A stretch of 51,443 nt of DNA from an uncultured Desulfocicer sp. (GCA_964437395.1 CAYTGW010000002.1:1-51443); one strand, 5' to 3'; counted from the first letter of the stretch, positions 17,175 through 49,803 are shown. Notes: generated by a model not told the origin, from the sequence alone. Made by a program: numbers and translations.

Positions 17175-17549
17175 ATGGATCGATCTATCAAGATTCTGAT
17201 TGTTGATGATTTCGCAACCATGCGTCGAATTCTCAAGAATATCTTAAAGCAACTGGGGTTTGTAAATATCACAGAGGCTGACGATGGTACCACAGCCCTT
17301 GAACAGCTGAAAAGCGGTCACTTTGACCTGATCATCTCAGATTGGAATATGCCGAAAATGACAGGGCTTGAACTTCTCAAAACCGTTCGCGGAATGAATG
17401 ATATAAAAAGCATACCGTTTTTAATGGTTACCGCAGAAGCTCAAAAACAGAATGTAATTAGCGCAGTGCAGGCGGGTGTATCCAATTACGTAGTCAAACC
17501 ATTTACCGCCGAACAGATATCGGATAAGTTAGAAAAAATATTGAAATGA
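17175..17549 (+). CDS. cheY: chemotaxis response regulator CheY
   Basis: Near-collinear with enterobacterial CheY: LIVDDFATMRR, ISDWNMPKMTGLELLK, MVTAEA, YVVKPFTA. 124 aa. Confidence 0.92.
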   Translation: MDRSIKILIVDDFATMRRILKNILKQLGFVNITEADDGTTALEQLKSGHFDLIISDWNMPKMTGLELLKTVRGMNDIKSIPFLMVTAEAQKQNVISAVQAGVSNYVVKPFTAEQISDKLEKILK

Positions 17550-18538
17550 TATCCAATGCTGGTAACAAAAATTTCAGGTCTCAGGCATTTATCGGAAACA
17601 ACCCTGAAATTCTGAATATATTGAATATCGTAGATAAAGTGGCAGATGAAGATGCGACCATTCTCATAACCGGTGAAAGTGGAACGGGAAAAGAGTTAAT
17701 CGCCAAAGAGGTTCATAAAAAAAGCAGCAGACGATCAGAACCACTCATCACCGTTAATTGCGGAGCGATCCCTTTTGAGCTGCTGGAAAGTGAACTATTC
17801 GGGCATGAAAAGGGAGCATTTACAGGGGCACATCGTGAACGAATCGGTCGTTTTGAATTGGCAGATAACGGAACGATTTTTCTAGATGAAATTGGTGATG
17901 TTAGTCCTGAAATACAAGTCAAACTGCTCCGGGTATTACAAGAACACAGCTTCGAACGAATCGGCAGTACCCAAACAATTTCTGTCAATATCAGAATCAT
18001 TGCAGCCACAAATAAAAATCTTGATCACGCCATTGCAGAAGGTAAGTTCCGTGAAGATCTTTTTTATCGATTAAGTGTGATACCAATCAAAATGCCTCCC
18101 CTTCGTGATCGAAAATCCGACATCCCGCTTTTAGTGAATCATTTTCTCGAAAAGCTTCAATCAATAAGGAATACTAAGGAAAAAAATTTTTCAAACGAGG
18201 CCTTGGAGGTGCTCATTCAGTACAACTGGCCGGGAAATATCAGAGAGCTTGAAAATTTAATTGAACGTCTCTCTGTTCTTGTGGATAAAAGCGTTTTCGA
18301 TGTATCGGACCTGCCTGAAAATTTTTTATACAAAAAACAAGAGGAATTTAAAAAATCCGTGTCTCGATTAAAAAAAGATATTGGATTCAATGATGCTGTT
18401 GAACAATACCAGCAGCACCTTATTCTACAGGCTCTCAAAAATACAGACGGAGTGAAATCAAAAGCTGCTGAATTGTTAAAAATCAATCGAACCACTCTGG
18501 TTGAAAAACTTAAAAAAATGAACATAAAACAACATTAG
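17546..18538 (+). CDS. sigma54-dependent transcriptional activator lacking a receiver or sensory domain
   Basis: The AAA+ domain begins about residue 15 (GESGTGKE Walker A, GAFTGA, FLDEIG Walker B). C-terminal Fis-type HTH. Its ATG overlaps the cheY stop (ATGA). Confidence 0.9.
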
Positions 18539-18747
18539 CATACTGCCAAAAAAAATGGTGCCAAATTCTTGACTGTTTCAACAGAACATCCTCATGATTT
18601 CCGCGCTCTTTCTCCTTATCGGAAATGACAAGCATCGCCGAACCTATCCTCAGACCAATCCAAATCCCTTTGTTATTCAGGATGTGAACTCCCTCTATTT
18701 TAGGGCTTACATCAATTACCCCTTTTTTATTCGACCATAAAAAATAT

Positions 18748-18762
18748 TGGCACACTGTTTGC
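18748..18762 (+). promoter_or_regulatory. sigma54 promoter (-24/-12)
   Basis: TGGCAC-actgt-TTGC(T) with exact GG-N10-GC spacing, 127 nt upstream of ATG 18889. Confidence 0.75.
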
Positions 18763-18888
18763 TATTTTATTCAAAAAACGCGGCCGATTATTCTATATCA
18801 ACATCCCTATACGAGTATCAAAAATCATCGAAACACGGCGAAAAGTAACTATGAAATTAATCCTTCCTTATTTAAATATCGAAAGGTT

Positions 18889-21429: not shown

Positions 21430-22796
21430 ATAATCCGAAAATTCTCATCATTGAAAAAAATATCCGGGAACGTACCCTTTTTTCCAGTCTATTGGAAAAT
21501 TGGGGATATTATGTCACTACTTCCCATGACGGAGAAGATGCGCTGGAAAAAATTCATTCCGAGGAATTTCATCTGGTTATTTCTGATTTTATGTTACCAG
21601 GAGGCTCAAATGGTGTAGATCTGATTCAAAGTATCCTTTCTGTAAGTGATAAAACCCACATTCTATTCATTTCTTTAGAAAGCTCCGTAAAAAATGATGT
21701 GGATGCCATGAAAGCCGGAGCCATCGACTATCTAGTAAAACCCGTTGACGAAGCTCAAATCCAACACATTCTTGAAAAGAATCTGCATGACCACCCAACA
21801 GAGAACAATTCACCATACCGGAAACAAAATGGTAAAGTAACGATTGTCACCAAAAATAAAACCATTATGCAGTTGCTCGATTTATCAAAGCAGGTTGCGA
21901 AAAGTACAGCCTCTGTATTCATTCAGGGAGAAAGCGGAACAGGAAAAGAACTATTTGCACGTTTTATTCATGACTGTAGTAATCGGGAAAAAGGACCCTT
22001 TGTGGCCGTAAACTGCGCCGCTCTTCCTGAGTCACTCCTTGAGAGTGAATTGTTTGGACATGAAAAAGGTTCATTCACCGGTGCAGTATCTCAAAAACCA
22101 GGCAAGTTTGAATTAGCAGATAACGGTACGATACTGCTGGATGAAATAACAGAAATGCAGCTCCACCTCCAGTCCAAACTTTTACGAATCATTCAGGAGC
22201 ATGAGGTGGACAGGGTTGGTGGACTGAAACCAGTAAAAATTGATGTCCGCATCATCGCAACCAGCAATCGAAACATTACCCAGTCGATCAAAGAGGGAAA
22301 ATTCAGAGAAGATCTTTATTTTCGGTTGAATACAATTCCTCTCACCATTCCGCCACTAAGAAAAAGGCCGGAAGATATTGAGCCACTCGCATTATTTTTC
22401 ATTCTTAAATATAACCGAGTCGACGGACGAAATGTCAAAACTTTGACTAAATCTGCTCTGAATACTCTACAAAATCTGAAGCTTAACGGAAACGTCAGAG
22501 AACTGGAAAATATTATTCAGCGAGCGGTATTGCTTTCAGACAATGAGACCATTCAGGAAAAGGATCTTTTTCTTGAAAACCATGATCCGACTTTCCCGGA
22601 CAACCCTCAAAACACTGAAGAACCAGCTGCCAACAGGATTGCCGTACCCTTGAAAGATGTTGAAAAAAAGATGATATTCCAAACGCTTGACCAAACCAAG
22701 GGCAATCGAACACATGCTGCAAAAATACTGGGCATCAGCGTTCGAACACTCAGAAACAAATTAAATGAATACCGGGAAATAATGGAAGTCCTGTAA
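21426..22796 (+). CDS. sigma54-dependent response regulator (NtrC family, FlrC/FleR/FlgR-like)
   Basis: REC (VISDFMLPG, YLVKP), AAA+ ([22 protein letters not shown]) and a Fis-type HTH. ATG 21426 overlaps the stop of the TPR gene (ATGA). Confidence 0.9.
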   Translation: MNNPKILIIEKNIRERTLFSSLLENWGYYVTTSHDGEDALEKIHSEEFHLVISDFMLPGGSNGVDLIQSILSVSDKTHILFISLESSVKNDVDAMKAGAIDYLVKPVDEAQIQHILEKNLHDHPTENNSPYRKQNGKVTIVTKNKTIMQLLDLSKQVAKSTASVFIQGESGTGKELFARFIHDCSNREKGPFVAVNCAALPESLLESELFGHEKGSFTGAVSQKPGKFELADNGTILLDEITEMQLHLQSKLLRIIQEHEVDRVGGLKPVKIDVRIIATSNRNITQSIKEGKFREDLYFRLNTIPLTIPPLRKRPEDIEPLALFFILKYNRVDGRNVKTLTKSALNTLQNLKLNGNVRELENIIQRAVLLSDNETIQEKDLFLENHDPTFPDNPQNTEEPAANRIAVPLKDVEKKMIFQTLDQTKGNRTHAAKILGISVRTLRNKLNEYREIMEVL

Positions 22797-29102: not shown

Positions 29103-29552
29103 ATGAAAAAATTCCGATTTCGTCTTCAATCCTTTCTTGGTTATCGAAAACATCTGGAACAGGAAGCCAAGCAGGCTGTCTCAATAACACAAACCAAAAT
29201 GAATGATTGTAAAAATCGAATCGATGCATACGAAATGAATCAACAAAAAAGTATCACGGAATTATATGATAAAATGTCCACTGGAATTGAAGCAAAGCAG
29301 ATACCCATCTACACTTCCTATCATGATCGACTCAGTTTCATTCTGAAAAATGAAAATATGCAGTATGCTCAATTAAAAAATGAGTTCTCCCATAAACAGA
29401 AAATTCTAAAGCAACGATCCGTGGAAAAAAAAGCCCTGGAAAATTTACAGCAGCGTAAAAAAGAGGAATATTATAAAAAAATTTCCGATTCCCTTCAAAA
29501 GGAATCCGAAGATATGAATATCATACGGAAAATCAGGGATACCCATAAATGA
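29103..29552 (+). CDS. fliJ: flagellar export chaperone-like protein FliJ
   Basis: 149-aa all-helical coiled-coil protein with a FRFRLQSFLGYRKHLE start, in the canonical position after fliI. Confidence 0.75.
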   Translation: MKKFRFRLQSFLGYRKHLEQEAKQAVSITQTKMNDCKNRIDAYEMNQQKSITELYDKMSTGIEAKQIPIYTSYHDRLSFILKNENMQYAQLKNEFSHKQKILKQRSVEKKALENLQQRKKEEYYKKISDSLQKESEDMNIIRKIRDTHK

Positions 29553-30304
29553 AAAAATCTTTCCAGCCTTTTCTCAAACTGCTTTTAATCGGCCTTGTTG
29601 CAACAAAGATCACCGCTTCTTTTTGTTTACTTTCCGATTTTGGTTTTGACTCTGCGCTGTTTCATATTCAACAACTTGCCCATGCAGAGGATCAAAAACA
29701 TGAAGGGCAGAAAAAAACAGAGGAGCAGAAAAAAAATGGAAAACCAGAAGAAAAACCAGAGGACTCGAAAAAACCGGATGAACATAAACAAAATGAAAAA
29801 ATAGAAGAAAAACCTTCATCCGAAGCTACTGCCGCTATACCGGAAAAAGAAGATACGACTACTACAGAAACAAAAGTTATGCTGAAAAGCCTCGAAAAAA
29901 AACGCCTCTTTCTTCAACAGGAAGAAATCCGAATTGGGGAAGAGAGAAAACAGATAGAGGCTTTAAAAGAAGAAATGGAAGAAAACCTCCTGAACCTGTC
30001 GAAAGTCCAAAAACAAATTGAAGAAAAACTGTTATTGATTGAAAAAAAAGAAACTGAAAAAGAACGTCTAAAAAGAGAAGCCAAACAAAAAAAACTGAAA
30101 CAGCTCCTCAAGATATACACGAGCATGAAACCCAAAGATGTTGGTACAATTATTAATAAATTGGATTTTGAAGACGCGTTGACAATCTTCCTCATGATGA
30201 AAGGTGATCAGGCTGCTAAAATACTGACCTATGTAAATACTGAACTTGCTGTAAAAATCAGTGAACAACTCATTAATGAAAAAAATCGTGTCCAGCCAAA
30301 ATGA
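29549..30304 (+). CDS. MgtE-N/FlbB-type flagellar protein (Bacillus YlxF / spirochaete FlbB position)
   Basis: N-terminal TM, a K/E-rich coiled coil, and a C-terminal MKPKDVGTIINKLDFEDALTIFLMMKGDQAAKIL MgtE-intracellular-N-like motif. ATGA overlap with fliJ. Confidence 0.7.
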   Translation: MKKSFQPFLKLLLIGLVATKITASFCLLSDFGFDSALFHIQQLAHAEDQKHEGQKKTEEQKKNGKPEEKPEDSKKPDEHKQNEKIEEKPSSEATAAIPEKEDTTTTETKVMLKSLEKKRLFLQQEEIRIGEERKQIEALKEEMEENLLNLSKVQKQIEEKLLLIEKKETEKERLKREAKQKKLKQLLKIYTSMKPKDVGTIINKLDFEDALTIFLMMKGDQAAKILTYVNTELAVKISEQLINEKNRVQPK

Positions 30305-30611: not shown

Positions 30612-32279
30612 ATGATCTCTCAGGGTATACAACCGGAAACACTATTTAAAGAATTCCTATCGTTGAAAACAGGAAGCGAAAACAGTTCTTCTTCAACTCA
30701 TTCCTTTGGTGAGCTTTTTGCGAACCAGCTCCAAAATAGGAAGCAAAATCAGAACCTTTCTGCGTCTACTCTTTTCAATGGCCTGAAAATGACAACCGGA
30801 AATGAATTTCTGGAAAGTGTGAAACAATATCTCCAGGCCACTGGATTGAAACTGGAACAGATTTCTGCAGGTCAGGATTCGCTTACTGTACTAAAAAAAA
30901 TATTACTTTACAAAGGCTTTGATCGAGATGAAGTCAATTTTCTCTTTGATCAATTACAGACAACTGTAAATGGAAAACAGGTAAAATTATCAGATCTGTT
31001 TGCAAAATTACGCGAATTAAATGGAAACAAGGAAAACGAAGAACTATCCCTCCTGTTACCCAGTTCTTCACTTCCTTTTTTCCAAACCCTTTTACCCCTG
31101 CTGGGCCTTGATGAACAAACAATGGAATCTTCTCTTTCCTATGCAAAAACACAAAGCGGTAACATCAATTTAGAACGATTGGTGTCTTTTTTAAAAGGGC
31201 TGGGAACAATTCATACAGATACCGGGGAACCAAAACAGTTGCCGAATAATGTTACACAAATATTGAAGAGCATGGGTCTCCCAGTATTGACAGATAAGGA
31301 AAACAAACTATCCCTTTCTCAATTTGTTTCCAGGCTTGAAATCATGCTGTATGAAAACGCGAGCAAAAGCACTTCTGAAACACATTTAAAAAATGACCTG
31401 ATTGGATTTCTAAAAAATCTGAATGTGAATCATGTTTTTTCGGATAATCATTTATTAACCGAGAACCTAACCCGTCTGAAAAGCACAAATCCTCTTGAAG
31501 CCTCAAAATTCAAAACCGACCATAAAAGTTCACTTTTCTCACGAAATGAAACAGCCAGATCTGCAGCAATCAACAATGAGCACTCTGCCGAAAAACCATA
31601 TGACTCCTTGAATCACGAAAATCCTTTTCAGGGAAGAAATTATTCATCCCTCCTTGATGATACAGCAGACAAGAACAAAGAAAATCTGCTCAAGTCATCT
31701 ATTCAGGAACAATTTGAAAAAACCATGGATAATGAAAATGGGCAGCAGGAGATTGATGCCACTTTGAAAGTCGGACTTCTCGGAAGTGATAAAAAGGAAA
31801 CACACTCGGTTGTAAACAACACAGTGACTTCAGAAAAATCTTTACCTGCCTATGTTATGAATCAGGTCAGCAAACAAATCCTTCGATCATTTCAAGATGG
31901 TTTGAATGAAATTCGGCTCCAGTTAAAGCCTCCGCATCTTGGAAGAATTCAGATTCATTTAAAAAATGAAACCGACGGCTTGAAGGTGAGTATCCTTGCC
32001 GAAAACAATACAACACAAAAACTTTTAAAAACCCATACATCCGAATTAAAAGCTGCCCTTCTGGAACATGGAATCCGTCTGGAAAAAATTGATGTTCAAG
32101 TCTCTTTTAACTTTGACCAGTCCATGTCCCAGGCAAAACAGGATTCACGGAAAGCGCCCCATAAAAATGAACTGATTTTCAGTCTGGACAACAAATCTGA
32201 AACAGCCGGCTTCATCGCTCCACAGCATCGTGATCCTTTAATCTGGAGAAATACAGGCATCCTTGATCTGGTTGCATGA
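30612..32279 (+). CDS. fliK: flagellar hook-length control protein FliK
   Basis: Low-complexity N-terminal ruler region. C-terminal Flg_hook domain (IRLQLKPPHLGRIQIHLKNETDGLKVSILAEN..T...L......LK..L...G). Located upstream of flgD and flgE. Confidence 0.85.
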   Translation: MISQGIQPETLFKEFLSLKTGSENSSSSTHSFGELFANQLQNRKQNQNLSASTLFNGLKMTTGNEFLESVKQYLQATGLKLEQISAGQDSLTVLKKILLYKGFDRDEVNFLFDQLQTTVNGKQVKLSDLFAKLRELNGNKENEELSLLLPSSSLPFFQTLLPLLGLDEQTMESSLSYAKTQSGNINLERLVSFLKGLGTIHTDTGEPKQLPNNVTQILKSMGLPVLTDKENKLSLSQFVSRLEIMLYENASKSTSETHLKNDLIGFLKNLNVNHVFSDNHLLTENLTRLKSTNPLEASKFKTDHKSSLFSRNETARSAAINNEHSAEKPYDSLNHENPFQGRNYSSLLDDTADKNKENLLKSSIQEQFEKTMDNENGQQEIDATLKVGLLGSDKKETHSVVNNTVTSEKSLPAYVMNQVSKQILRSFQDGLNEIRLQLKPPHLGRIQIHLKNETDGLKVSILAENNTTQKLLKTHTSELKAALLEHGIRLEKIDVQVSFNFDQSMSQAKQDSRKAPHKNELIFSLDNKSETAGFIAPQHRDPLIWRNTGILDLVA

Positions 32280-32342
32280 TGACCGTCATCTTTTTTTATT
32301 ATAATAATTGTCCGATCATTCGATTTTCCTATGGAGGATAAA

Positions 32343-33053
32343 ATGAACGTAACTCAAACCGCATACGGAAACAGCAACATAAATAAACTTTTTACCGGGC
32401 ATACCGAAGAAGTTGAGGAAAAAAAAGACCCCTTGGGAAGAGATGCTTTTTTAACCATGCTGGTGGCTCAACTTCGAAATCAAGATCCGTTGAATCCCAT
32501 GGAAGGAACAGATTTCACAGCCCAATTAGCCGAATTTTCAGCACTTGAACAGCAATTTACTATCAATGATAATCTGGAAGCGATACTCGATGCGCTAAAA
32601 CCCAAAACCCAGGATAATCTGATGGATTTTATCGGTAAAGAGGTCATGGGAGAATCCAATACCATATCCTCTTCAAATGGAAGTACCACCACTGGATACT
32701 ACACCATTGAAGACTCAGCCGATGTTGCGATTGCCATTTACGATCAAGAAGGAACCTTGATTCAAAATATTTATTCTGGCCAAAAAGAGGCCGGAACACA
32801 CCCCATCCAATGGGATGGTAAAAATCTGGAAGGAGCGATAGTACCGGATGGCACCTACAATTTCGAAATTATGGCCTTGAATGACATCGGAGGATATATT
32901 GAGGCCAAAACCACCGTAGAAGGAAAAGTAACCGGTGTAACCTATGAACATGATATTCCGTATCTTCAGATCGGGGATAGACTTCTGGATCCTTCGACGG
33001 TTACAAGAATACTTCTACCCCCGGAAGAGGATGAAGCAGCCGAGAGTACCTGA
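32343..33053 (+). CDS. flgD: flagellar hook capping/assembly protein FlgD
   Basis: DAFLTMLVAQLRNQDPLNPM signature and a FlgD Ig-like C-terminal domain. GGAGGA precedes ATG 32343. ATG 32331 is an in-frame alternative. Confidence 0.92.
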   Translation: MNVTQTAYGNSNINKLFTGHTEEVEEKKDPLGRDAFLTMLVAQLRNQDPLNPMEGTDFTAQLAEFSALEQQFTINDNLEAILDALKPKTQDNLMDFIGKEVMGESNTISSSNGSTTTGYYTIEDSADVAIAIYDQEGTLIQNIYSGQKEAGTHPIQWDGKNLEGAIVPDGTYNFEIMALNDIGGYIEAKTTVEGKVTGVTYEHDIPYLQIGDRLLDPSTVTRILLPPEEDEAAEST

Positions 33054-33102: not shown

Positions 33103-36100
33103 ATGTCTCTAACCAGCTCATTGTTCTCAGGAATCAGCGGAATGACCAACCTGGGAAATGCCATGCAAATCATCGGTGATAATATCGCAAATGTCAATAC
33201 AACCGCATTTAAAGGCAGTAATTATGTTTTTCAGGATCTCCTGAGTCAACAAATTGCAACTCAGTCGGGTACAGCCCAGGTAGGACGAGGTATGGCACTT
33301 GGAGAAGTTGCTTCTGTTTTCGAACAGGGATCGTTTGAGTCTACCGGAAATACAACTGATCTGGCCATTGGCGGCGATGGTTTTTTTGTTCTTCGGGAAT
33401 CCACATCAGAAGAGTTATATTATTCCAGAGCCGGAAATTTTAAATTCGACCGGGACGGAGTTTTAATTAACTCGGTGGGATATGTTGCTCAGGGTTGGGC
33501 GCTGGATGATGATGGCGATGAGGTCGGTTCCGTTACCGATATCAAGCTGGCCTCCTTTACCTCACCGCCCAAAATAAGTGAAAGTCTCACCATGATAACC
33601 AATCTGGATTCTGACGCACTCAGTCAATCTGTTGTTCTGGCAAATGCATGGGATGCGGAAGAAACAACTCCCATAGTCGGTTCCGCTTATAATTATCAAT
33701 CGGTTGTAAAGGTATATGATTCACTTGGAAGTACCCACGATATTACCATCTATTATGACAAACAATCCGAATCCAAATGGGAGTACATTGTCACCTGTAA
33801 TCCGGAAGAAGATAAAAGGGGACTGGTTCAGGAAACTTCCGCAAAAGGGCTCCTGGCAAAGGGGGAAATTACATTCTCGGACAGCAGTGGAACAATTTCC
33901 AACCTGACCATGAGGCAATTTACCGGCAGAATCGGAAATATTTCTGCCGACGGAGCCATCACAAATGAGACAACCAATTTTACCATCAACAATTATGATG
34001 CTCTGTCTCTGGATGGATATAATTTCAGTCTTGAATTCGATGGAACCAACTGGTCTTTTGAAGATTCTGCAGCACCCATTGGTGCATTAACTGCTTCCGA
34101 TCTTCCGACAAATTACCCGTTTGCCACTATTATAAGTGGTGATGCCAACGGTATTCAGATTAATCTGGACGGAGATACGGACAGAACAGCCGACCTTACC
34201 ATCTCATTTTCAACACCAGCCCAGGCCACTGATGCACTGACTTTTGATATTATCAGTCCGCAGAATATTCATATTCAGGATGTGATCAACACCCAATATA
34301 TTGGAGATACCGGAAACGAAAATACCCAGCTTGATATCAACCATCCGGAAGTTCTGACCACTGACTCCTCAGATTTGCGTATCAATTGGGATGCCAGTGA
34401 ACAGGACTGGTATTGGGCAATGCCTCTGCTTCAAAACGTTACAACTATGAATACAGCCAGTTTATCACCCGCTGCCCTGACCGGATCAGTCAATGTAACC
34501 AATGCTTCCGTCATGACCAGTTATTCTGAAGATACTACCGTATGGTTTGACAACAATACCGGTCTCTGGAATTTTATCTCTCCCTATGCCCGGGATTTAA
34601 CCAATCAGAGCTACACCGGAGGCATTACCGAAGCAAACACCTCCATTTTGGTAGCAGATCCTACAGTTTTGGAAAACCATTCCACCGGTATTACACTTGC
34701 CTGGGACAATATCGTGGGAATGACCAATCTTGCATACAGCAACACCAGTGGATCTAATGAAATCCTTGCAACCAATACAACTGTAACCGTTTCCCAGGAA
34801 GAAAACTTTACAAGGGATTCCAGCATTACCTATATTCTGGAATATGATGGAGTAGGAGATACCTGGGGTTGGGGAGCCGGTGGAGATCCGGTAGTGGATT
34901 ATTTGAGCAGACAAACTCCTACATGGGATTCGGTTTCCCAGCGTTTAAGTGTTGATCTTTCCGGTTCGGGAGCAGATTTCCTAGTCGACTTTTCTTTTGC
35001 CGGCGGCCTAACCGCAGCTTCTGACGGAGATACCATTTCCTTCCAAATTGATGCCGATGGCGCTTGGACCTGGGCCATGCCGACCTATAGTATTTCCAGT
35101 ACCACCGGTGGTGTTGTTTCGACCAACATAACTGGAAATATTTCTTCCTCTCTTACTGCACCTGCAGCTTACTATGATTCATCTTCGGATGTGGGCGGAC
35201 CTGAATATAATCTGGTTTTTACCAGTGCTACCAACACCTGGAGCTGGGATGCTGCCGGACACACTCCTGCCACAGGAGGTGCGGGAGCGACAACCGGTTC
35301 CTATGATTCTGAAACCTTTATCGTAAACAACGAAAATGAGGTTTCCATTGATCTTGACGCTGATGGTTTGGCCGATGTCACCTACACCTTTACGATCCCT
35401 TTAACCGCAGACGGCACCTTGAATTTTTCCATTGATGCAATCGGCAATCCTCCACCCGAATATTCTTCTGCGAGTATCTCCTCCACTTCAGGATCCGACA
35501 TATTGAGCATTGATATGACCGGAAACGGAACCTCGGATCTGGTGTTAAGCTTTCTCTCCCCCTTAAACTCCAACGGTACCATCACTTTTGATGTTGATAC
35601 CCATATTCCACCGTTCGAATACCCAAATGCCTCCATTGACAATGTTTCTTCGAATGCCAGTGCTCTCTATATGGACCTGAATGGAGACAGCATCAATGAT
35701 ATCAATTTTTCATTTCTTGCTGCAGGAATACCCCAGTCCCTGACTGGTAACGGAACATTTGTCTTTGATATCGATCCCAGGGTTCCGCCGACTGAATACT
35801 CCTATGCGACCATCTCCGGTGATACGGATGAAGTTATGATTGACTTGAACAATGATGGTGAAGATGACATCACTTTCACTTTTCTCACACCTTTACCAAC
35901 TGGAGCATCCGCACAGGATAGTGCCATCACATTTGATATTGAGGGAACAACTGCATGGACTGCCGTCCCTACGAATTCAAACGGGTATTACGAATTTATG
36001 GTGGATTTCCAGGGAGGCGAAATCGGTGTGACCGAGAACGACCTGGAGTTCAACATTGGTACCAAGGATGATGGAACCGGTCAATTTATCAATGATTCTC

Positions 36101-36522
36101 TCACAACCACTCAATATGCACGGTCATCTACAACGACATTCCAATCCGCCGATGGATATGGAGCAGGTGATCTTGAAGGAGTTGATGTGGATACGGACGG
36201 CTCCATGACCGGCATCTATTCAAATGGTCAACTTATACCGCTTTACCGCATCGCTCTCGCCCATTTTCTGAATGAGCATGGACTATCCAAACTGGGAGGC
36301 AACCTGTATCGTGAAACCAGGGACAGTGGAACCGCCATCACCAATAAACCAGGCACAAACGGTCTTGGAAGCATTACACCCAACTCTCTAGAACAGTCTA
36401 ATGTAGATATTGCCAACGAATTCGTAAAGATGATTACTACCCAGCGGGCTTTCCAGGCTAACTCGAAAATTGTGACCACTGTCGATGCCATGCTTGGTGA
36501 AGTGATCAATATGAAACGGTAA
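33103..36522 (+). CDS. flgE: flagellar hook protein FlgE, giant form (1139 aa)
   Basis: Canonical N-terminus (LFSGISGMTNLGNAMQIIGDNIANVNTTAFKG) and C-terminus (SLEQSNVDIANEFVKMITTQRAFQANSKIV). It follows flgD. About 700 aa of extra sequence lie between the conserved blocks. Confidence 0.9.
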   Translation: MSLTSSLFSGISGMTNLGNAMQIIGDNIANVNTTAFKGSNYVFQDLLSQQIATQSGTAQVGRGMALGEVASVFEQGSFESTGNTTDLAIGGDGFFVLRESTSEELYYSRAGNFKFDRDGVLINSVGYVAQGWALDDDGDEVGSVTDIKLASFTSPPKISESLTMITNLDSDALSQSVVLANAWDAEETTPIVGSAYNYQSVVKVYDSLGSTHDITIYYDKQSESKWEYIVTCNPEEDKRGLVQETSAKGLLAKGEITFSDSSGTISNLTMRQFTGRIGNISADGAITNETTNFTINNYDALSLDGYNFSLEFDGTNWSFEDSAAPIGALTASDLPTNYPFATIISGDANGIQINLDGDTDRTADLTISFSTPAQATDALTFDIISPQNIHIQDVINTQYIGDTGNENTQLDINHPEVLTTDSSDLRINWDASEQDWYWAMPLLQNVTTMNTASLSPAALTGSVNVTNASVMTSYSEDTTVWFDNNTGLWNFISPYARDLTNQSYTGGITEANTSILVADPTVLENHSTGITLAWDNIVGMTNLAYSNTSGSNEILATNTTVTVSQEENFTRDSSITYILEYDGVGDTWGWGAGGDPVVDYLSRQTPTWDSVSQRLSVDLSGSGADFLVDFSFAGGLTAASDGDTISFQIDADGAWTWAMPTYSISSTTGGVVSTNITGNISSSLTAPAAYYDSSSDVGGPEYNLVFTSATNTWSWDAAGHTPATGGAGATTGSYDSETFIVNNENEVSIDLDADGLADVTYTFTIPLTADGTLNFSIDAIGNPPPEYSSASISSTSGSDILSIDMTGNGTSDLVLSFLSPLNSNGTITFDVDTHIPPFEYPNASIDNVSSNASALYMDLNGDSINDINFSFLAAGIPQSLTGNGTFVFDIDPRVPPTEYSYATISGDTDEVMIDLNNDGEDDITFTFLTPLPTGASAQDSAITFDIEGTTAWTAVPTNSNGYYEFMVDFQGGEIGVTENDLEFNIGTKDDGTGQFINDSLTTTQYARSSTTTFQSADGYGAGDLEGVDVDTDGSMTGIYSNGQLIPLYRIALAHFLNEHGLSKLGGNLYRETRDSGTAITNKPGTNGLGSITPNSLEQSNVDIANEFVKMITTQRAFQANSKIVTTVDAMLGEVINMKR
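35341..35946 (+). repeat. four tandem ~53-56-aa coding modules inside flgE
   Basis: The modules begin at 35341, ~35500, ~35662 and ~35831. Pattern: (I/M)DL(D/N)xDGxxD(V/I)xF(T/S)F..(8-12)..G(T/A)(I/L)xFx(I/V)D....PPxEY.xA(S/T)I. More diverged copies occur near 34150-34258 and 34942-35057. Confidence 0.85.
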
Positions 36523-36556
36523 ACAATCGTAAGCACCTGAATTCTGTCCGATATAA

Positions 36557-36597
36557 ATCAGGAAAAGAAGTCTCTTTCTTTTCCTGATTTTTTTTAT
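36557..36597 (+). terminator. rho-independent terminator after flgE
   Basis: A 13-bp stem (ATCAGGAAAAGAA at 36557-36569 with TTCTTTTCCTGAT at 36576-36588), a 6-nt loop, then a T9 run. Confidence 0.85.
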
Positions 36598-36732: not shown

Positions 36733-37029
36733 ATGGTACAAGCCGGAGCTATGATCTGGCTGGCGGATGTCACGGCATCTGTTCTTGCATTAATCGGAAA
36801 GAGTGTTGGGGATGATGGAAAGGGTTTTCCTCTGGCGATTGATCTTCATACAACGCTGATCAGCAACCAGAAAGATGGAGAAATCAAAGCAGAAGCCCGA
36901 TTTGTTCGCAGAGGCCAAAATGTCCTGGTGATCAGAACGACAATCATTAGAAATGGCAATCGCTTATTGGCAGAAGTTACTTCAACGCATCTATTCGCTC
37001 ATTCGAGTGCTTTCGCCAGACCCGCGTGA
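36733..37029 (+). pseudogene. N-terminally truncated PaaI/4HBT hotdog-fold thioesterase remnant
   Basis: GMVQAGAMIWLADVTAS aligns with the N.xGxxHGG....LAD core of PaaI-type thioesterases, followed by the ..A.A....GR.... strands. About 40 N-terminal residues and the HGG motif are missing. No RBS. Confidence 0.45.
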
Positions 37030-37311: not shown

Positions 37312-38547
37312 TTATGTAATTATAACGGTGATTGTGGTTACATCCGCTGCACCGTTTTTATCCGTTACCGTAAGTGTGATCAGATGTTCTCCAACAGAGA
37401 GAATTGATATACTGAAACTTGTTCCCGTGCCGATGAATCCATCCAGATCCGATGTCCATACAAGGGAAGCTCCATATAAATTGCCATCCTCGGCGTCAAT
37501 ACCGGTTCCGGTGAAAATCACTAAGGAACCGCTGGCATATGAAGATGCGGTGGCTGGATTGGTAATGGTTGCGGTTGGAACGGTATTCTCCACGGTAACA
37601 ATAACTGAATCGGTTCCGGTCGCACCATTGCTATCGGTTGCAACCAGGGTAATGGTATGGTCACCACTGGAAAGATAGGCTACGGTTGATGAATTACCAA
37701 TCCCAATCCTTCCGTCTTTATTGGAAATCCATTCCAGCGCTTCACCATCAAGAGAACCATCTTCCGTATCGGTTCCGGTACCGTTAAATGTAATGGACTC
37801 CCCTTCAAAAATCGACACGTCTGCAGATGGAACAATTATGGTTGCCGTGGGAGCTGTATTGCCGATTGTGATTATGACAGATGCGACACCCGTGGTATCC
37901 GCACTGTCAATGGCCTGAAGCTGAATGGTATGACTGCCTACTGACAGGGTGTTGGTCGTGAAGGCGTTTCCAATTCCAATCTGGCCATCCAGATTGGAAT
38001 TCCAGATCAATGAAAAATCTTTGAGAGATCCGTCTTCCGAATCGCTTCCTGAACCACTGAAGGTTATGTAATCTCCTTGGCTGAAACTGCTCGCAGTAAC
38101 CGGAGAAGCAATCGTAGCCGTCGGAATCGTGTTGCCTATCGGGTTCACAATTACATTTATGGCCGTACTTCCGGTTCCACCACTGGTATCCGTCACAGTG
38201 AGAGTGATCACATGTGTACCGTTTGATAAGGAAACATTCCGCATGGACGTACCGATGCCCAGCATGCCATCCTTGCTCGAATGCCATTCCAAGGCTCCTC
38301 CGGTCAGTGTTCCGTTTTCTGAATCGGTTCCGGACCCGGAAAAAGTAACTTTATCATTTTCACTGAATGCTGCATTATCTTCCGGAGTCCTGATCGTTGC
38401 TGTGGGTAATGTGTTGAGTCCCTGTGGTGTAATGGGTTCCTCCATTTCATCCCCACTCGTACCGATAATGCTGACCAGTCCGATTATGATTGCTGACCCC
38501 AACAGGAAACTACGAAAAACAGTATAGATAATTTTTTTGATTTTCAT
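37312..38547 (-). CDS. secreted/anchored protein made of four tandem Ig-like (Big/PKD-like) domains
   Basis: N-terminal hydrophobic segment (FRSFLLGSAIIIGLVSIIG), then four 88-94-aa repeats. Each repeat has PTATI...P......F..G..(I/V)TF(S/N/T)G(S/T)G.D.E(D/N)G.L....L.W.S..DG.(I/L)G.G.......LS.G.H.I.L...D..G. It lies 58 nt downstream of the FlgP-like gene on the same strand. Confidence 0.8.
   Translation of the reverse strand: MKIKKIIYTVFRSFLLGSAIIIGLVSIIGTSGDEMEEPITPQGLNTLPTATIRTPEDNAAFSENDKVTFSGSGTDSENGTLTGGALEWHSSKDGMLGIGTSMRNVSLSNGTHVITLTVTDTSGGTGSTAINVIVNPIGNTIPTATIASPVTASSFSQGDYITFSGSGSDSEDGSLKDFSLIWNSNLDGQIGIGNAFTTNTLSVGSHTIQLQAIDSADTTGVASVIITIGNTAPTATIIVPSADVSIFEGESITFNGTGTDTEDGSLDGEALEWISNKDGRIGIGNSSTVAYLSSGDHTITLVATDSNGATGTDSVIVTVENTVPTATITNPATASSYASGSLVIFTGTGIDAEDGNLYGASLVWTSDLDGFIGTGTSFSISILSVGEHLITLTVTDKNGAADVTTITVIIT
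37315..38409 (-). repeat. 4 x ~273-282-nt tandem coding repeats (Ig-like domains)
   Basis: PTATI starts at residues 48, 142, 233 and 324 of the 411-aa protein, giving periods of 94, 91 and 91 aa. The several long antisense ORFs across this interval are shadows of the repeat. Confidence 0.85.
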
Positions 38548-38605: not shown

Positions 38606-39277
38606 CTACTCTTCGGCAAGGGCTGACCCTGCCAGAGATCCTGCAGTTGCGCCAATGGCCATGGCACCGGGAGTTCCGCCCAAAGCATCTAGAGTGACGG
38701 AGCTCTGACCGAGTGCCGTTCCAGTAGCTGATCCTGCTGCTGCTCCGGCAGCACCACCACCCAGTGATCCCAAAAGGCTTCTTGAAAAAAATGAACCATC
38801 GTAAAACTTGAACTCTCGAGGCGCCATATATATTTTTACGGTTGCATTTGCCACTCCGTCTTTAAAGCTGACAAAATTCACCTGTGCTCCGCGGAGATAA
38901 GCATTTGTTTCACTGGTTACCTGGTCAACAGAAATGTTGTTATAACCCGCAGCAGAATAGGCATTGATGATCATCCCGGCCACCCGCTCTGAAATTTTTC
39001 GGTACCCGTCGATTACAGCAGCTCTTTCGGCCATCAATTTTTTCTGCTGAGGTGACCCGGTTTCAGGCTCGATTCCCTGTCCGCGGACACTGATCAAAAT
39101 TTTTTGCGAAGCTTCTTCCGGTTCCAGTCCTGGAATCAGATTTAACGCACTGTTGTTCATCGTGGTTTGATATTTTATAATTTCATGGCTGGTTGAACAT
39201 CCAGTAAAAAGCAGGAGTAAGGATACCATAAAGACTGGCATCCATTTACGTTTTGATACACCACATTCCATTTGCAT
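38606..39277 (-). CDS. flgP: FlgP/LPP20-family lipoprotein with a C-terminal Gly/Ala-rich (glycine-zipper-like) tail
   Basis: Signal peptide plus lipobox (KRKWMPVFMVSLLLLFTGC). LPP20-type core (GQG....Q.KLMAERAAVIDGYRKISERVAGMII......V..V.......LRGAQV......DG.A.ATVKI). AAGGAGA lies 7 nt before ATG 39277. A sigma54 promoter lies upstream. Confidence 0.7.
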   Translation of the reverse strand: MQMECGVSKRKWMPVFMVSLLLLFTGCSTSHEIIKYQTTMNNSALNLIPGLEPEEASQKILISVRGQGIEPETGSPQQKKLMAERAAVIDGYRKISERVAGMIINAYSAAGYNNISVDQVTSETNAYLRGAQVNFVSFKDGVANATVKIYMAPREFKFYDGSFFSRSLLGSLGGGAAGAAAGSATGTALGQSSVTLDALGGTPGAMAIGATAGSLAGSALAEE

Positions 39278-39766: not shown

Positions 39767-40531
39767 ATGGATATTGCAACACTGCTCGGAACCATCTCCG
39801 CATTTGGTCTGGTAATCCTGGCTATTTATATGGGTGGTGGTATCTTACTATTCATTGATGCACCTTCACTCATGATCGTTGTTGGAGGAACATTCGGAGC
39901 AACCATGATCAACTATCCGATCCGGGATGTCCTCGGTGCTTTAAGAGTGGTAAAAAACGTCTTTTTCACAAACCCCCTGCCCATTGGAGAGATTGCCGGA
40001 AAATTTGTAACCTTTGCCGGAAAAGCCAGACGTGAAGGAATATTGTCACTGGAATCCGATCTCCAATCCATCCCGGATGATTTCTTAAAAAAAGGATTAC
40101 AGCTTTCTGTTGATGGAATTGAACCACAATCCATACAGGAAATTATGGAAACCGAAATCAATTTTTTACATGAGCGGCATCAGCTTGGAGCCGAAATATT
40201 TACAACCATGGGGTCATTTGCACCTGCTCTTGGAATGGTTGGCACCCTGATCGGACTGGTTCAGATGCTTCAATCCATGGATGATCCAAATTCCATCGGG
40301 CCAGCCATGGCTGTTGCCTTATTAACCACTTTCTACGGATCAATACTTGCAAATCTTGTATTTATGCCGGTTGCCGGCAAATTGCGAACCCGAAGCAAAG
40401 AAGAAATTCTGATAAAGGCAATGATTGTTCAAGGCGTTATCGCTCTTTCCCGTGGAGACAATCCACGACTGCTTGAACAAAAACTACTTTCATTCTTAGC
40501 ACCCAAATTCCGGGAAAGTGCATTTAAATAA
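39767..40531 (+). CDS. motA: flagellar stator protein MotA
   Basis: Four-TM MotA/TolQ/ExbB topology with the C-terminal motif GPAMAVALLTTFYG..LAN. 254 aa. Confidence 0.93.
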   Translation: MDIATLLGTISAFGLVILAIYMGGGILLFIDAPSLMIVVGGTFGATMINYPIRDVLGALRVVKNVFFTNPLPIGEIAGKFVTFAGKARREGILSLESDLQSIPDDFLKKGLQLSVDGIEPQSIQEIMETEINFLHERHQLGAEIFTTMGSFAPALGMVGTLIGLVQMLQSMDDPNSIGPAMAVALLTTFYGSILANLVFMPVAGKLRTRSKEEILIKAMIVQGVIALSRGDNPRLLEQKLLSFLAPKFRESAFK

Positions 40532-40586
40532 ACGTAAATCCTTCACAATGAATATTGTGACGCTATCCCGGACAGGAAGTCAATAC

Positions 40587-41342
40587 ATGAAATCGGAAAA
40601 AAAAATGAAAAATGCCCATTTTTTTTCAAATGGCAAGATGCTGCAGTTGATGACGATTTCTCTTTTTATCATTCTGCTTGTTTTTTTCATTCTGCTGAAT
40701 TCAATTGCTGTTAGAAATGAACAAAAAGTGGTTGCTGCCATTGGATCACTTCTCGGGAGTTTTGGTCAAAAAATGGGTGGAGATTCGGATATTGACGGAA
40801 CCGGTGAAAAAAATCCAATCCTCCCCGTAAACACTTACACCGGAGGAATCGACTTCTCCGACATCCTTGTTAACGACCCGATGCTTTTGCAGCAAATCAA
40901 AATTCTTACTGACCCGAGAGGCACTCTTGTCCGGATAACGGCAGACACCTTGTTTACCAATTTTGAAACAACGATCAACCTTTCCGGGCACCGGTTTCTG
41001 GATGGAATCACCAGGACAATACAGAACAATCGTTATCCAGTCGAGATTTCAAGCCATACCGACAACATTCCAATCATCAAAAACGAGGAAAAAACGAATC
41101 AGGAAGTCTCTGCCTTGCGTGCACTTCATATTCTTCAATATGTAACGGAAAGCAAAAACATTTCAGTTGATCGGATCACTGCTTTTGGCTGGGGAGAATA
41201 TCAGCCCGCTTATTCCAATCGAACCCTGGAAACCAGAAAACTGAACAACAGAATCGATATCCTTTTTGTTCACAAACCAAAGAAGCAAAAGCCAAAAAGC
41301 GGATTTATTTTTAAAGATTTCTTTTTCCGGTCATTTGAGTAA
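40587..41342 (+). CDS. MotB-like OmpA-domain protein lacking the conserved TM aspartate
   Basis: A single TM that aligns with the MotB channel helix but reads LQLMT where MotB has (A/G)D(F/L)(M/V)T. The OmpA-like C-terminus is intact (SHTDN, NQEVSALRA, NNRIDILF). The start is uncertain (40518, 40548, 40587 or 40605). Confidence 0.72.
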   Translation: MKSEKKMKNAHFFSNGKMLQLMTISLFIILLVFFILLNSIAVRNEQKVVAAIGSLLGSFGQKMGGDSDIDGTGEKNPILPVNTYTGGIDFSDILVNDPMLLQQIKILTDPRGTLVRITADTLFTNFETTINLSGHRFLDGITRTIQNNRYPVEISSHTDNIPIIKNEEKTNQEVSALRALHILQYVTESKNISVDRITAFGWGEYQPAYSNRTLETRKLNNRIDILFVHKPKKQKPKSGFIFKDFFFRSFE

Positions 41343-41357
41343 GGAATTTCAATAATC

Positions 41358-42104
41358 ATGCCATCATCGAAAACACCAAAAAGAATTGAATCTTCAAAAA
41401 TAAATTCGGATTTATGGATGCTCACCTTTGGTGACCTGGTTATGCTTCTTCTGACCTTTTTTGTTTTGCTTTTGAGCATGAAATCTTTGGACACAAAAGA
41501 TCTGAGAGAATTATTTCCAAATCCTTCTCTCTGGGGCGGTCCCCTGAAATATTCGGAAAACGGGTTAACCGGAAAAACCACGGATTTTTATGGTGATAAT
41601 AAAAACTCAATTTTTGTGGAAAACAAAGATGCCCTGAAACAAATCTTTATGATGATGAAAGAGATTCAACCATCTCTTACGGAAAAAGATGTGGTAAATC
41701 ATTTTAAAAAATCGATTCTCATCGAGGATGATCCCAAAGGAGTCGTGATATCATTCCAGACAGAACAATTATTCGAGCCAGGTGAAACGACCATCAATCC
41801 ATCCAAAATCGATTTCCTTAATGCTGCCGGAGAATTGTTGAAAAAAACAACGAACAACATTCTGATAATGGGACATGCAAGCAGCATTCAACTCCCAAAA
41901 CCTGCATTGAAATCAAGTTGGGATCTGACCCTGTATCGGGCACTTAACGTTCTGTATTATTTAACCGCAAATTTTGAATTATTGGAAAACAGACTCGCTG
42001 TGGGAGGATTTGGAGATAAAAAACCAAAATTTCCTGTTACGGAAGTAGAGAATCAAAAAAAAAATGACCGGATTGAATTTATTCTCATGAAAGCAACAGA
42101 ATGA
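41358..42104 (+). CDS. motB: flagellar stator protein MotB (canonical TM Asp present)
   Basis: WMLTFGDLVMLLLTFFVLLLS channel helix with the conserved Asp. OmpA-like C-terminus (GHAS.., SSWDLTLYRA, NDRIEFIL). 248 aa. Confidence 0.85.
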   Translation: MPSSKTPKRIESSKINSDLWMLTFGDLVMLLLTFFVLLLSMKSLDTKDLRELFPNPSLWGGPLKYSENGLTGKTTDFYGDNKNSIFVENKDALKQIFMMMKEIQPSLTEKDVVNHFKKSILIEDDPKGVVISFQTEQLFEPGETTINPSKIDFLNAAGELLKKTTNNILIMGHASSIQLPKPALKSSWDLTLYRALNVLYYLTANFELLENRLAVGGFGDKKPKFPVTEVENQKKNDRIEFILMKATE

Positions 42105-47703: not shown

Positions 47704-49803
47704 ATGAAAAATGAAATCATCAAAACGCTGAAGGACCTCGTAAAAGACTCATCAGACATGGCAATGGTGGTTGCCGTGATTGGTATCCTCTGTGCGATGC
47801 TGTTGCCACTCCATCCGGTGATACTGGATCTTTTATTGGCGCTGAACATAACCATCGCAATCATTATCCTCATCACTACCATGTATACGATTTCACCATT
47901 GGAATTTTCAATTTTTCCATCTGTCCTGCTGGTGATTACCCTGTTCCGCCTTGCATTGAATGTTGCCTCAACCCGTCTGATTCTTCTGCATGGCAGTGAA
48001 GGAAGCCTGGCAGCGGGAGCCATTATCAAATCTTTTGGCAGCTTTGTTGTCGGAGGCAATTATGTTATCGGAATGATCATCTTTGTCATTCTGGTCTTGA
48101 TTAATTTTATTGTTATCACCAAAGGCTCCGGCCGGATCGCTGAAGTTGCCGCCCGGTTTACACTGGATGGAATGCCCGGCAAACAAATGGCCATTGACGC
48201 GGATTTAAATGCCGGCATTATTGATGAAAATGAAGCCCGTGAACGGAGAAAAATGATTGCAAAAGAGTCGGAATTCCACGGTGCAATGGATGGTGCAAGC
48301 AAGTTTGTGCGCGGGGATGCCATTGCCGGAATTATTATCACTGCAATCAATATTATCGGCGGATTTGTAATTGGTGTGTTTCAACAAGACATGAGTATGA
48401 TTGATGCGGCAAAAAACTACACTCTGCTTACGGTGGGTGATGGTCTTGTTACTCAGATCCCGGCACTCATTATCTCCACCTCTGCCGGTCTTCTCGTATC
48501 CCGGGCAGCATCAGAAGATCGAATGGGCAAAGAATTTTTAAAACATATTTTTTCCACCCCAAATCCCATATACATTGGAGCGATTATCGTCTTCATGCTC
48601 GGGATGGTTCCCGGATTACCAGCCTTTCCCTTTATGACTCTCTCGATGATTCTCATCGGAACAGTTTACTATTATCACAATGTATCCGGAAAAAAGAAGA
48701 GAGAAGCACTGCCTGAAGAGGCTGGTAAAGAAAAAACTGCACCTACCGGACCCGAAGAGGTTGAACACTTATTAACCCTTGACGCAATGGAACTTGAGGT
48801 TGGTTATGGATTGATACCGCTGGTTGACAGTGAACAAACCGGTGATCTTTTGGGTCGAATTCGAGCCATTCGAAGACAGTTTGCAACCGAGATTGGAATC
48901 ATCATTCCGCCGATTCATATCCGTGATAACCTCAAATTAAAGCCTTCTGAATATCGACTGCTGATTAAAGGTGTCCAGATGGCTGGTGCCGAGCTTATGG
49001 TAAATCATCTCCTGGCCATGGACCCCGGTAATGTTACCCGGAAGATAGAAGGAATTCCCACAACAGAACCTGCATTCAACCTTCCGGCATTATGGATTCC
49101 GCCGGAAAGGGAAGAGGATGCCAAATTTAATGGATATACCGTTGTTGACAACTCTACGGTTATTGCTACCCATCTTACTGAAGTGATCCGGAATAATGCT
49201 TCAGACCTTCTGGGAAGACAGGAAGTACAACATCTTCTTGATAATCTTGCAAAAACCTATCCAAAAGCGGTTGAGGAGCTGGTTCCGGCGCAACTTCCCC
49301 TTGGCATACTTCAAAAAGTATTACAGAATCTTTTACGGGAAAGAGTATCCATCCGGGACTTATTAACAATTGTCGAGGTGCTTGCGGATTATGCTTCAAA
49401 AAGCAAAGATCCGGATCTACTGACAGAATATGTAAGGCAAAAATTAGCCCGATCCATGCTAAGCCCCTATGTTCAGGATGAAGGTGTGCTACCTGTTATC
49501 ACTGTTGATCAGGAAGTGGAAAATGTTCTTTCTAAATCCATACAGCATACGGAACACGGATCATACCTTGCTGCAGAGCCCAAGATCGTGGATTCAATTG
49601 TGGGTTCCATTAAAGAGGAGATTGAAAAAATTATGGCGATCAGCATTCAGCCGATCATTCTCTGTTCTCCTGTATTGAGGCGTCACCTGAGAAAACTTGT
49701 AGAACAATTTGCGCCATCTGTGTTTGTTTTTTCGCATGCTGAAATTCAGCAGAACATTCATGTTAAATCAACCGGTAAGGTAATGTTACGACATGGTCGT
49801 TAG
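47704..49803 (+). CDS. flhA: flagellar export gate protein FlhA
   Basis: FHIPEP family: RFTLDGMPGKQMAIDADL, FVRGDAIAGIII, and the cytoplasmic C-terminal ring domain. 699 aa. AGGAG RBS. Confidence 0.97.
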   Translation: MKNEIIKTLKDLVKDSSDMAMVVAVIGILCAMLLPLHPVILDLLLALNITIAIIILITTMYTISPLEFSIFPSVLLVITLFRLALNVASTRLILLHGSEGSLAAGAIIKSFGSFVVGGNYVIGMIIFVILVLINFIVITKGSGRIAEVAARFTLDGMPGKQMAIDADLNAGIIDENEARERRKMIAKESEFHGAMDGASKFVRGDAIAGIIITAINIIGGFVIGVFQQDMSMIDAAKNYTLLTVGDGLVTQIPALIISTSAGLLVSRAASEDRMGKEFLKHIFSTPNPIYIGAIIVFMLGMVPGLPAFPFMTLSMILIGTVYYYHNVSGKKKREALPEEAGKEKTAPTGPEEVEHLLTLDAMELEVGYGLIPLVDSEQTGDLLGRIRAIRRQFATEIGIIIPPIHIRDNLKLKPSEYRLLIKGVQMAGAELMVNHLLAMDPGNVTRKIEGIPTTEPAFNLPALWIPPEREEDAKFNGYTVVDNSTVIATHLTEVIRNNASDLLGRQEVQHLLDNLAKTYPKAVEELVPAQLPLGILQKVLQNLLRERVSIRDLLTIVEVLADYASKSKDPDLLTEYVRQKLARSMLSPYVQDEGVLPVITVDQEVENVLSKSIQHTEHGSYLAAEPKIVDSIVGSIKEEIEKIMAISIQPIILCSPVLRRHLRKLVEQFAPSVFVFSHAEIQQNIHVKSTGKVMLRHGR

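Follow-up and report, generated by a model that had tools for sequence, protein, structure and literature searches.

The question raised by this locus is whether a predicted flagellar hook protein of 1139 amino acids (aa), FlgE, is really a hook subunit and, if so, what the several hundred residues inserted between its conserved ends consist of and may do. The gene lies in a 51,443-nucleotide stretch of DNA (the window) from an uncultured Desulfocicer sp. (GCA_964437395.1 CAYTGW010000002.1:1-51443). The hook is usually seen as a conserved universal joint built from a protein of ~400 aa, the D3/D4 domains of Campylobacter and Helicobacter being the one well-studied exception. The evidence given below makes it very probable that the gene specifies a genuine hook subunit of an uncultured member of the Desulfobacterales, and that a repeat-built insertion within domain D2 is displayed as outer mass on the hook. 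Whether the repeats also bind metal, as an earlier reading of the sequence alone (the original prediction) had proposed together with a high-torque or otherwise specialised flagellum, is a separate and more tentative matter.

The flgE gene and the origin of its insertion

The gene and the main divisions of its product are as follows.

33103..36522, + strand: flgE coding sequence, ATG start, 1139 aa, 121 kDa, pI 4.05
33130..33495, + strand: D0 rod motif (aa 10-37) and N-terminal part of D1 (aa 88-131), PF00460 and PF22692
33652..34044, + strand: N-terminal part of D2 (aa 184-314), PF07559 profile positions 8-124 of 142
34045..35940, + strand: lineage-specific insertion in D2, predicted all-beta, aa ~315-946, ~632 aa, without Pfam match
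35941..36519, + strand: C-terminal part of D2, C-terminal part of D1 and D0 helix (aa 947-1139), from alignment and PF06429

Four Pfam signatures were found, all above their gathering cutoffs: Flg_bb_rod (PF00460, aa 10-37), D1 (PF22692, aa 88-131), FlgE_D2 (PF07559, aa 184-314) and Flg_bbr_C (PF06429, aa 1094-1137). Together with the score of the NCBIfam FlgEFG subfamily model TIGR03506 (296.7 bits, cutoff 70.25), they bear out the identification of the open reading frame (ORF) as a FlgE of 1139 aa. No NCBIfam FlgE equivalog model scored above its cutoff, the best being NF004238 (291.9 bits against 400, with the match split in two), because the insertion interrupts the architecture; the homology is not in doubt. 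The N-terminal D0/D1 region aligns to the N-termini of the Salmonella and C. jejuni proteins, a conserved YDSLGSTHD hairpin is found at aa 204-213 within the N-terminal part of D2, and aa 947-1139 can be aligned with residues 222-402 of Salmonella FlgE and with 708-850 of the C. jejuni protein. This giant FlgE retains an intact conserved core of D0, D1 and D2.

A long ORF of this kind could be spurious, a faulty assembly or a frameshift having joined flgE to an unrelated repeat protein, a danger that the original prediction had itself pointed out. The insertion, however, lies inside D2 with the FlgE core in the same frame on both sides, and 13 independent clusters of 1116-1149 aa, drawn from NCBI, JGI, ENA and Logan assemblies, match the query over 99-100% of its length with identities of 55-93%. 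A 74-kb NCBI contig likewise carries a protein identical to that of the window. Four loci from metagenome-assembled genomes (MAGs), here L001 to L004, are collinear with it and have in common the gene order fliK-flgD-flgE-(hotdog, PKD, lipoprotein)-motA. Three of the four carry a full-length FlgE of 1125-1139 aa, the fourth (L004) stopping at a contig edge after 509 aa; all are assigned to the Desulfobacterales, the lineage being confirmed for one of them, 'Desulfosudis oleivorans'. Within the window flgE there are no DNA-level tandem repeats and no recent duplication, and the tandem modules described below are only 30-41% identical pairwise, so repeat collapse or expansion by the assembler is not an issue. 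The ratio of non-synonymous to synonymous substitution rates (dN/dS; Nei-Gojobori, three orthologues) is 0.04-0.19 in the insertion and 0.03-0.10 in the core. The whole ORF is thus translated and constrained, with the insertion under purifying selection, and a fusion artefact is effectively refuted: the insertion is genuine, in frame and conserved.

Repeats, predicted structure and relatives

The insertion is composed of two types of repeat, six D-modules and six Trp-hairpin W-units, located as follows (W-HMM and module HMM, hidden Markov models of the two units; iE, independent E-value).

33958..34053, + strand: W0 (aa 286-317), at the D2 edge, first half of super-unit [W0+Da], W-HMM iE 1.3e-6
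34105..34251, + strand: D-module a (aa 335-383), loop INLDGDTDRTADL, module HMM
34309..34872, + strand: W1-W4 (aa 403-439, 457-491, 508-543, 555-590), W-HMM iE 7e-15 to 5e-10
34948..35097, + strand: D-module b (aa 616-665), loop VDLSGSGADFL, module HMM, not in the 900-950-aa relatives
35128..35247, + strand: W5 (aa 676-715), pairs with D-module c, W-HMM iE 7e-6
35341..35976, + strand: tandem D-modules c-f (aa 747-793, 802-846, 856-906, 911-958), module HMM iE 1e-14 to 3e-29

The D-module is ~50 aa long and has four strands. Its first half comprises a short strand (A-x-I), a strand of pattern phi-x-phi-D-phi and an acidic loop, which forms the hairpin between strands 2 and 3, and its second half a strand (D-phi-x-phi-x-F), a variable loop, a strand (phi-x-F-x-phi-D) and usually a PPxEY linker. 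In the W-unit (~35-40 aa) an N-x-T strand is followed by a P-x-V turn and then by a phi-x-phi-x-W-D ... W-x-W hairpin. The four tandem D-modules had been noticed in the original prediction, and they are real repeats, located at nt 35341-35976 in agreement with the 35341-35946 first given. A module HMM seeded on them also recovered the two diverged upstream copies that had been suspected near 34150 and 34942 (aa 352-383, iE 1e-5; aa 616-665, iE 8e-8), and found no further copy in a six-frame translation of the window. The PPxEY motif said to follow each module is present after three of the four, the last ending in TAWTAVP, and the second repeat, the W-unit, had been missed altogether. The W-HMM gave no matches in shuffled sequences and recovered W0 although that unit was outside its seed.

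HMM-HMM comparison, one of the checks proposed at the outset, was carried out with hhalign (profile-profile comparison of 13-sequence sub-alignments). The D-modules match each other with probabilities of 95-99%, the tandem ones pairwise with E-values of 1e-8 to 1e-19, and W1 matches W3 at 96.5%. Longer segments are also related: W4Db and W5Dc (98.7%, E 4e-16), W0Da and W5Dc (95.7%), and W0Da and W4Db (92.2%). Some units therefore form super-units [W+D] of ~100 aa, and the proposed order is D2(N)-[W0 Da]-W1-W2-W3-[W4 Db]-[W5 Dc]-Dd-De-Df-D2(C). D-module a has three residues, D364, D377 and F381, that do not vary among 69 family members. A derivation of the units from D2 itself was considered and rejected, as hhalign of the N- and C-terminal parts of D2 against all units gave probabilities below 50%, although W0 does share residues with the last part of the Pfam D2 match.

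In composition the insertion is Asn/Thr/Ser/Asp-rich, as first described. Residues 301-960 (34003-35982) contain no Lys, no Cys, 7 Arg and 87 Asp plus Glu, which amounts to a net charge of -80. Lys is similarly scarce (0-1) in most of the nearest relatives, compared with ~11 in the shorter ~930-aa family. N-x-S/T motifs number 22, against 11.6 +/- 2.8 in shuffled sequences (p about 0.0005).

AlphaFold2 (AF2), run with a 69-sequence alignment, modelled aa 160-985 with confidence (block pLDDT, the predicted local distance difference test, mostly 75-94), and predicted only strands in the insertion, with no helix of at least 4 residues between aa 302 and 985. Foldseek comparison of the full model with the PDB returned only FlgE D1/D2, with C. 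jejuni FlgE (5JXL) outside the top 50, and comparison with BFVD returned only noise (TM ~0.05). A model of the tandem modules matched weak beta-propellers only in the PDB (E at least 0.02, TM about 0.2); these matches are too weak for a beta-propeller or Ig-like fold to be assigned. The D-module profile found nothing significant among PDB sequences (best E 0.034, to an unrelated protein), and Pfam scans of sub-segments of the insertion and of 42 family members found no family for it.

The original prediction had stressed that the protein is far larger than known hooks. This holds against structurally characterised examples (in the PDB, Salmonella FlgE is 403 aa and C. jejuni FlgE 851 aa), and fails for the lineage itself. 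When FlgE lengths were compared among relatives, the next ~107 homology matches after the long clusters were found to be proteins of 819-1045 aa, nearly all about 900-960 aa, with named sources that include Desulfobacter, Desulfobacula, Desulfotignum, Desulforegulaceae, Desulfobotulus mexicanus (914 aa) and Desulforapulum autotrophicum HRM2 (901 aa). A FlgE of 900-950 aa, of which the databases contain hundreds, is the norm across the Desulfobacterales, cultured D. autotrophicum included. These relatives have the same insertion site, a core 50-56% identical, 3-4 D-modules and 2-4 W-units. The size is thus not unique, and what distinguishes the window clade is an addition of about 230 residues, seen in a gap map against 54 shorter homologues and placed at aa 523-568, 599-740 (Db and W5) and 772-825 (Dd). 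All members above 1100 aa found here come from MAGs. The series of sizes may be summarised as follows.

P0141: 715 aa, 1 D-module
Typical relatives: ~930 aa, 3-4 D-modules
P0074: 1045 aa, 5 D-modules
Window clade: 1114-1149 aa, 6 D-modules

Independent and younger duplications are seen in P0074 and P0125, with 63% and 67% identity between units, so the number of units is still evolving by duplication; the family spans 1 to 6 D-modules and lengths of 715-1149 aa. When the insertion alone was compared with 1.84 billion cluster representatives (exhaustive phmmer), there were 30 matches at E <= 1e-3. Ten longer ones were scanned with Pfam, and nine carried FlgE domains (four the full set), the other, P0124 (624 aa), having none; the remaining matches were short fragments. 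It seems, then, that the domain family is confined to the FlgE proteins of this lineage. Giant FlgE proteins are already in the databases under generic automatic annotation, and full-text literature searches for giant Desulfobacterales FlgE or Ca2+-binding hooks gave nothing relevant.

It might be asked whether the giant protein is an accessory paralogue, serving a second flagellar system or an adhesive hook-like structure, while a FlgE of normal size encoded elsewhere builds the hook. Some bacteria do carry two flagellar systems, and the window covers only 51 kb of the genome. The gene, however, directly follows fliK and flgD in the flagellar operon, the canonical position in an apparently complete primary flagellar locus that extends from flgBC to flhBAF. 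It has the same slot in all four MAG loci and in cultured D. autotrophicum HRM2, where the complete genome places the 901-aa gene at fliK-flgD-flgE in the main flagellar operon. In addition, D0/D1 are the most conserved part of the protein (dN/dS 0.03-0.10), as expected of a polymerising subunit. An accessory role is therefore improbable, and the protein is best regarded as the hook subunit proper.

Comparison with Campylobacter, which had been offered as a precedent, holds as an analogy, in that beta-rich domains grafted onto D2 enlarge the hook subunit in both (Campylobacter jejuni and Helicobacter pylori FlgE structures: PDB 5JXL, 5AZ4 and 5NPY). It does not extend to the insertion site, nor to sequence or fold. 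In the present protein the YDSLGSxH hairpin (aa 199-236) comes before the insertion, but in C. jejuni (residues 610-651) it is reached only after D3/D4; the hairpin stretch alone aligns weakly between the two (i-Evalue 91), although inspection leaves no doubt about the motif. No relationship is seen between the inserted sequences (phmmer domain score of -2.9 bits against 5JXL), and the epsilonproteobacterial model flgE_epsilon (TIGR02489) reaches 226.2 bits against a cutoff of 412.85, with only the termini aligning. The insertion in the present protein consists of short repeats of variable copy number under purifying selection, whereas the inserted region of C. jejuni is described as antigenically variable. 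D3/D4 have been stated to occur only in epsilonproteobacteria (Matsunami et al. 2016, PMC5097172). Given the different insertion point and the unrelated inserts, sequence comparison indicates an enlargement that is independent of, and convergent with, that of Campylobacter. Sulfate reducers of an entire, environmentally important order have thus arrived independently at a hook subunit three times the usual size, by a route with its own insertion point and a repeat-built, FlgE-only family that has neither a Pfam entry nor a structural neighbour. Another comparison is with the giant flagellins of marine gammaproteobacteria, which exceed 1000 aa by way of a hypervariable surface region and form a thicker structure (Thomson et al. 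2018, PMC6248924). They are likewise enlarged axial flagellar proteins, but they belong to the filament and not the hook and their domains are unrelated; in the passages on hook proteins considered here, these are mentioned only as a contaminating class to be filtered out.

A probable outer hook layer and the metal question

Since the insertion is in D2, the outermost conserved domain of the hook, it should lie on the outer surface, as had been proposed. After type III export and polymerisation, each of ~120 subunits would display ~67 kDa of acidic, lysine-free beta structure outside D2, and this mass would form one or more additional concentric layers. A back-of-envelope estimate, assuming an axial rise of about 4.1 A per subunit and 60-100% packing, would have the hook diameter increase from ~18 nm to roughly 24-27 nm. 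In C. jejuni, D3/D4 contribute both intra-protofilament (11-start) and inter-protofilament (17-start) contacts, and the robustness of the hook depends on them (PMC5097172). By analogy, the new layers would probably add lateral and axial contacts between subunits and so raise robustness or stiffness, and the giant hook probably works like that of Campylobacter. The natural series of 715, ~930, 1045 and ~1140 aa could be used to relate the mass of the outer layer to hook stiffness, bending and torque transmission, and the cultured and sequenced Desulforapulum autotrophicum HRM2 makes experimental work feasible.

The loops of the tandem modules read DLDADGLAD (c), DMTGNGTSD (d), DLNGDSIND (e) and DLNNDGEDD (f). 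Three of them (c, d and f) fully fit the pattern D-x-[DNT]-x-[DN]-G-x-x-D, and e has Ser at position 6. Within the DxDxDG class of Ca2+ loops, the motif D-x-[DN]-x-[DN]-G-x-x-D represents the integrin FG-GAP type, and the conserved acidic position 9 sets the integrin-type loop of FG-GAP repeats apart from a generic turn. A set of 439 module copies, taken from the window protein and 120 homologues (121 sequences), has Asp at position 1 in about 92% of non-gap cases and at position 9 in 74%; the prevailing residues are D/N/T at position 3, D/S/N at position 5 and G at position 6. In modules c-f of the 13 long-clade proteins, positions 1, 3, 5, 6 and 9 are nearly invariant, and neither D914 nor D922 varies among the 69 aligned members of the family. 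The likeness to a calcium loop that had first been noticed in a single protein is thus a conserved sequence feature of the family. Pfam models of such loops stay below their gathering cutoffs (FG-GAP, 15.4 bits against 22.1; FG-GAP_3, 14.5 against 26.9). Among 42 family members, FG-GAP (PF01839, PF13517) matched one, and Dockerin_1 (PF00404) gave sub-threshold matches to five (best E 0.025) and none to the window protein. The D-module resembles FG-GAP and dockerin in the loop pattern, in the joining of two beta strands by the loop and in the hydrophobic strand that follows. It differs in that the matches are sub-threshold and confined to the loop, no closed propeller is predicted, and it has conserved features of its own, the F at strand 4 and the PPxEY linker.

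From pattern and conservation it is plausible, at slightly less than even odds, that the acidic loops bind a cation. They may take up Ca2+ or Mg2+ from the saline surroundings and so lock the modules in their folded state outside the cell. A serious if less secure possibility is that the loops are metal-free structural hairpins (Asx turns, Gly bulge) and the layer a steric or electrostatic coat, an anionic, lysine-free surface that is protease- or phage-resistant or anti-fouling, and not a Ca2+-stabilised stiffener. The similarity to Ca2+-binding families, which is sub-threshold and at the level of a motif, agrees with such a coat, as do the deviations of loops a and b from the consensus; a net charge of -80 would give a strongly repulsive surface with or without metal, and the enrichment of N-x-S/T fits Asn-capped beta turns as a structural habit. 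The near invariance of loop positions in c-f, where average identity around them is ~65%, is harder to reconcile with it, as is the conserved acidic position 9 that marks an integrin-type loop, and a charge of -80 per subunit at high packing density would normally need counter-ions. A metal-dependent hook is in any case a concrete and testable possibility. Ca2+ is known to rigidify RTX proteins and Ig-like repeat adhesins, and a more elaborate scheme can be imagined in which Desulfobacterales hooks are wrapped in a hitherto undescribed, FlgE-specific, Ca2+-stabilised fold that grows by units and arose independently of D3/D4; the D-modules would fold only after export in millimolar Ca2+/Mg2+ and rigidify the hook, with copy number tuning its stiffness. 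This scheme is speculative and, taken as a whole, rather unlikely.

Several points weigh against a thick, metal-stabilised outer layer and should be set beside the above. AF2 confidence was low for D0 and D1, which is usual for an unpolymerised FlgE monomer. The structure prediction that was to settle the nature of the modules gave a confident all-beta insertion; modelled alone, however, the four tandem modules (aa 733-962) lost confidence (pLDDT 73; predicted template modelling score, pTM, 0.38) and their fourth strands, so the quaternary arrangement of the insertion is not fixed by prediction. In the full-length model the tandem modules probably pack against other parts of the insertion and are not independent beads. 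No significant structural neighbour of the insertion emerged from the PDB or BFVD. Loops a and b, two of the six, do not follow the acidic-loop pattern, Asp/Asn/Gly-rich hairpin loops can be purely structural, and the case for Ca2+ binding is drawn only from a sequence pattern. The full-length FlgE is presumed to be incorporated into the hook, and a normal-sized flgE paralogue may lie elsewhere in the genome, beyond the window. The bending of a universal joint could also be hindered by an outer layer of such thickness. As for the high-torque or specialised flagellum, nothing in the window speaks for it: HMM scans of the neighbouring genes gave no match to a FlgP, PflA/B, MotX/Y or FlgT-type scaffold.

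Neighbouring genes

The features around flgE are listed below.

30612..32279, + strand: fliK, hook-length control protein, 555 aa, Pfam Flg_hook E 2.6e-17, two genes 5' of flgE
32331..33053, + strand: flgD, hook cap/scaffold protein, 240 aa, Pfam FlgD E 7.6e-21 and FlgD_ig E 2.7e-16
36555..36590, + strand: intrinsic-terminator-like hairpin, 16-bp stem then T-run, 33 nt past the flgE stop
37312-38547, - strand: 411-aa protein with four tandem PKD/Big-like domains, between flgE and motA
38606-39277, - strand: 223-aa predicted lipoprotein with a Gly/Ala-rich tail, between flgE and motA

The operon order leading to flgE is fliF-fliG-fliH-fliI-fliJ-(FlbB-like ORF)-fliK-flgD-flgE. The 5' part of the locus contains sigma-54 activators and flgC (PF06429/PF00460), which is preceded by a 149-aa ORF without Pfam match. 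On the 3' side of flgE there are two reverse-strand genes, a PomA/MotP-like motA and two MotB-family genes, and further 3' Pfam recognises fliL, fliM and fliP, with flhA (FHIPEP) at 47704-49803. The complete genome of D. autotrophicum HRM2 has the full order fliL-M-N-O-P-Q-R-flhB-flhA-flhF.

The lipoprotein gene is kept between flgE and motA in L001-L003 and the PKD protein gene in L001-L002; neither is at that position in D. autotrophicum HRM2, where fliL follows flgE. HMM scans recognised no FlgP/LPP20 or other flagellar family in either protein, and the idea that the lipoprotein is FlgP/LPP20-like was dropped accordingly. The 846-aa TPR protein (18889-21429) was likewise dropped as a PflB-like candidate, as it matches only generic TPR models of the YbgF/BamD type. 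It forms part of a regulatory cluster (13632-22796) with an HD-GYP-type response regulator, a PilZ protein and two sigma-54 activators; located 5' of the flagellar genes, this cluster fits control of the locus by sigma-54 and cyclic di-GMP.

The stator genes occupy 39767-42104. Of these, motA best matches PomA/MotP (Na+-type) models, with E 8e-83, below the curated cutoff. Of the two MotB-family genes, that at 40518-41342 specifies an OmpA domain only, while that at 41358-42104 also has the MotB plug. Between fliJ and fliK, a 251-aa ORF (29549-30304, + strand) has a weak, sub-threshold match to FlbB, a spirochaete periplasmic collar protein (E 6e-6, 26 bits against a cutoff of 110), and likewise to MgtE_N. 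Just past the flgE terminator is a 98-aa ORF (36733-37029, + strand) with a match to the hotdog thioesterase model TIGR00369 (E 2e-6, below cutoff). It covers only the C-terminal two-thirds of such models, is partly conserved in L001 and L002, and may be a truncated gene.

The FlgD of the window, with 240 aa and one FlgD_ig domain, is smaller than that of D. autotrophicum HRM2 (369 aa and two FlgD_ig domains; locus L005, 6802-7911), although the window FlgE is the larger of the two. Relatedness among the hook genes is mosaic: FliK is 91-93% identical to those of L002 and L004 and 76% to that of L001, whereas FlgD is 95% identical to that of L001 and 77% to those of L002 and L004. Between the flgE genes of the window and L001, the synonymous substitution rate (dS) is 0.17-0.21 in the termini and 0.34-0.60 in the insertion. 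The mosaic pattern and the contrast in dS suggest recombination among the flagellar genes or within flgE.

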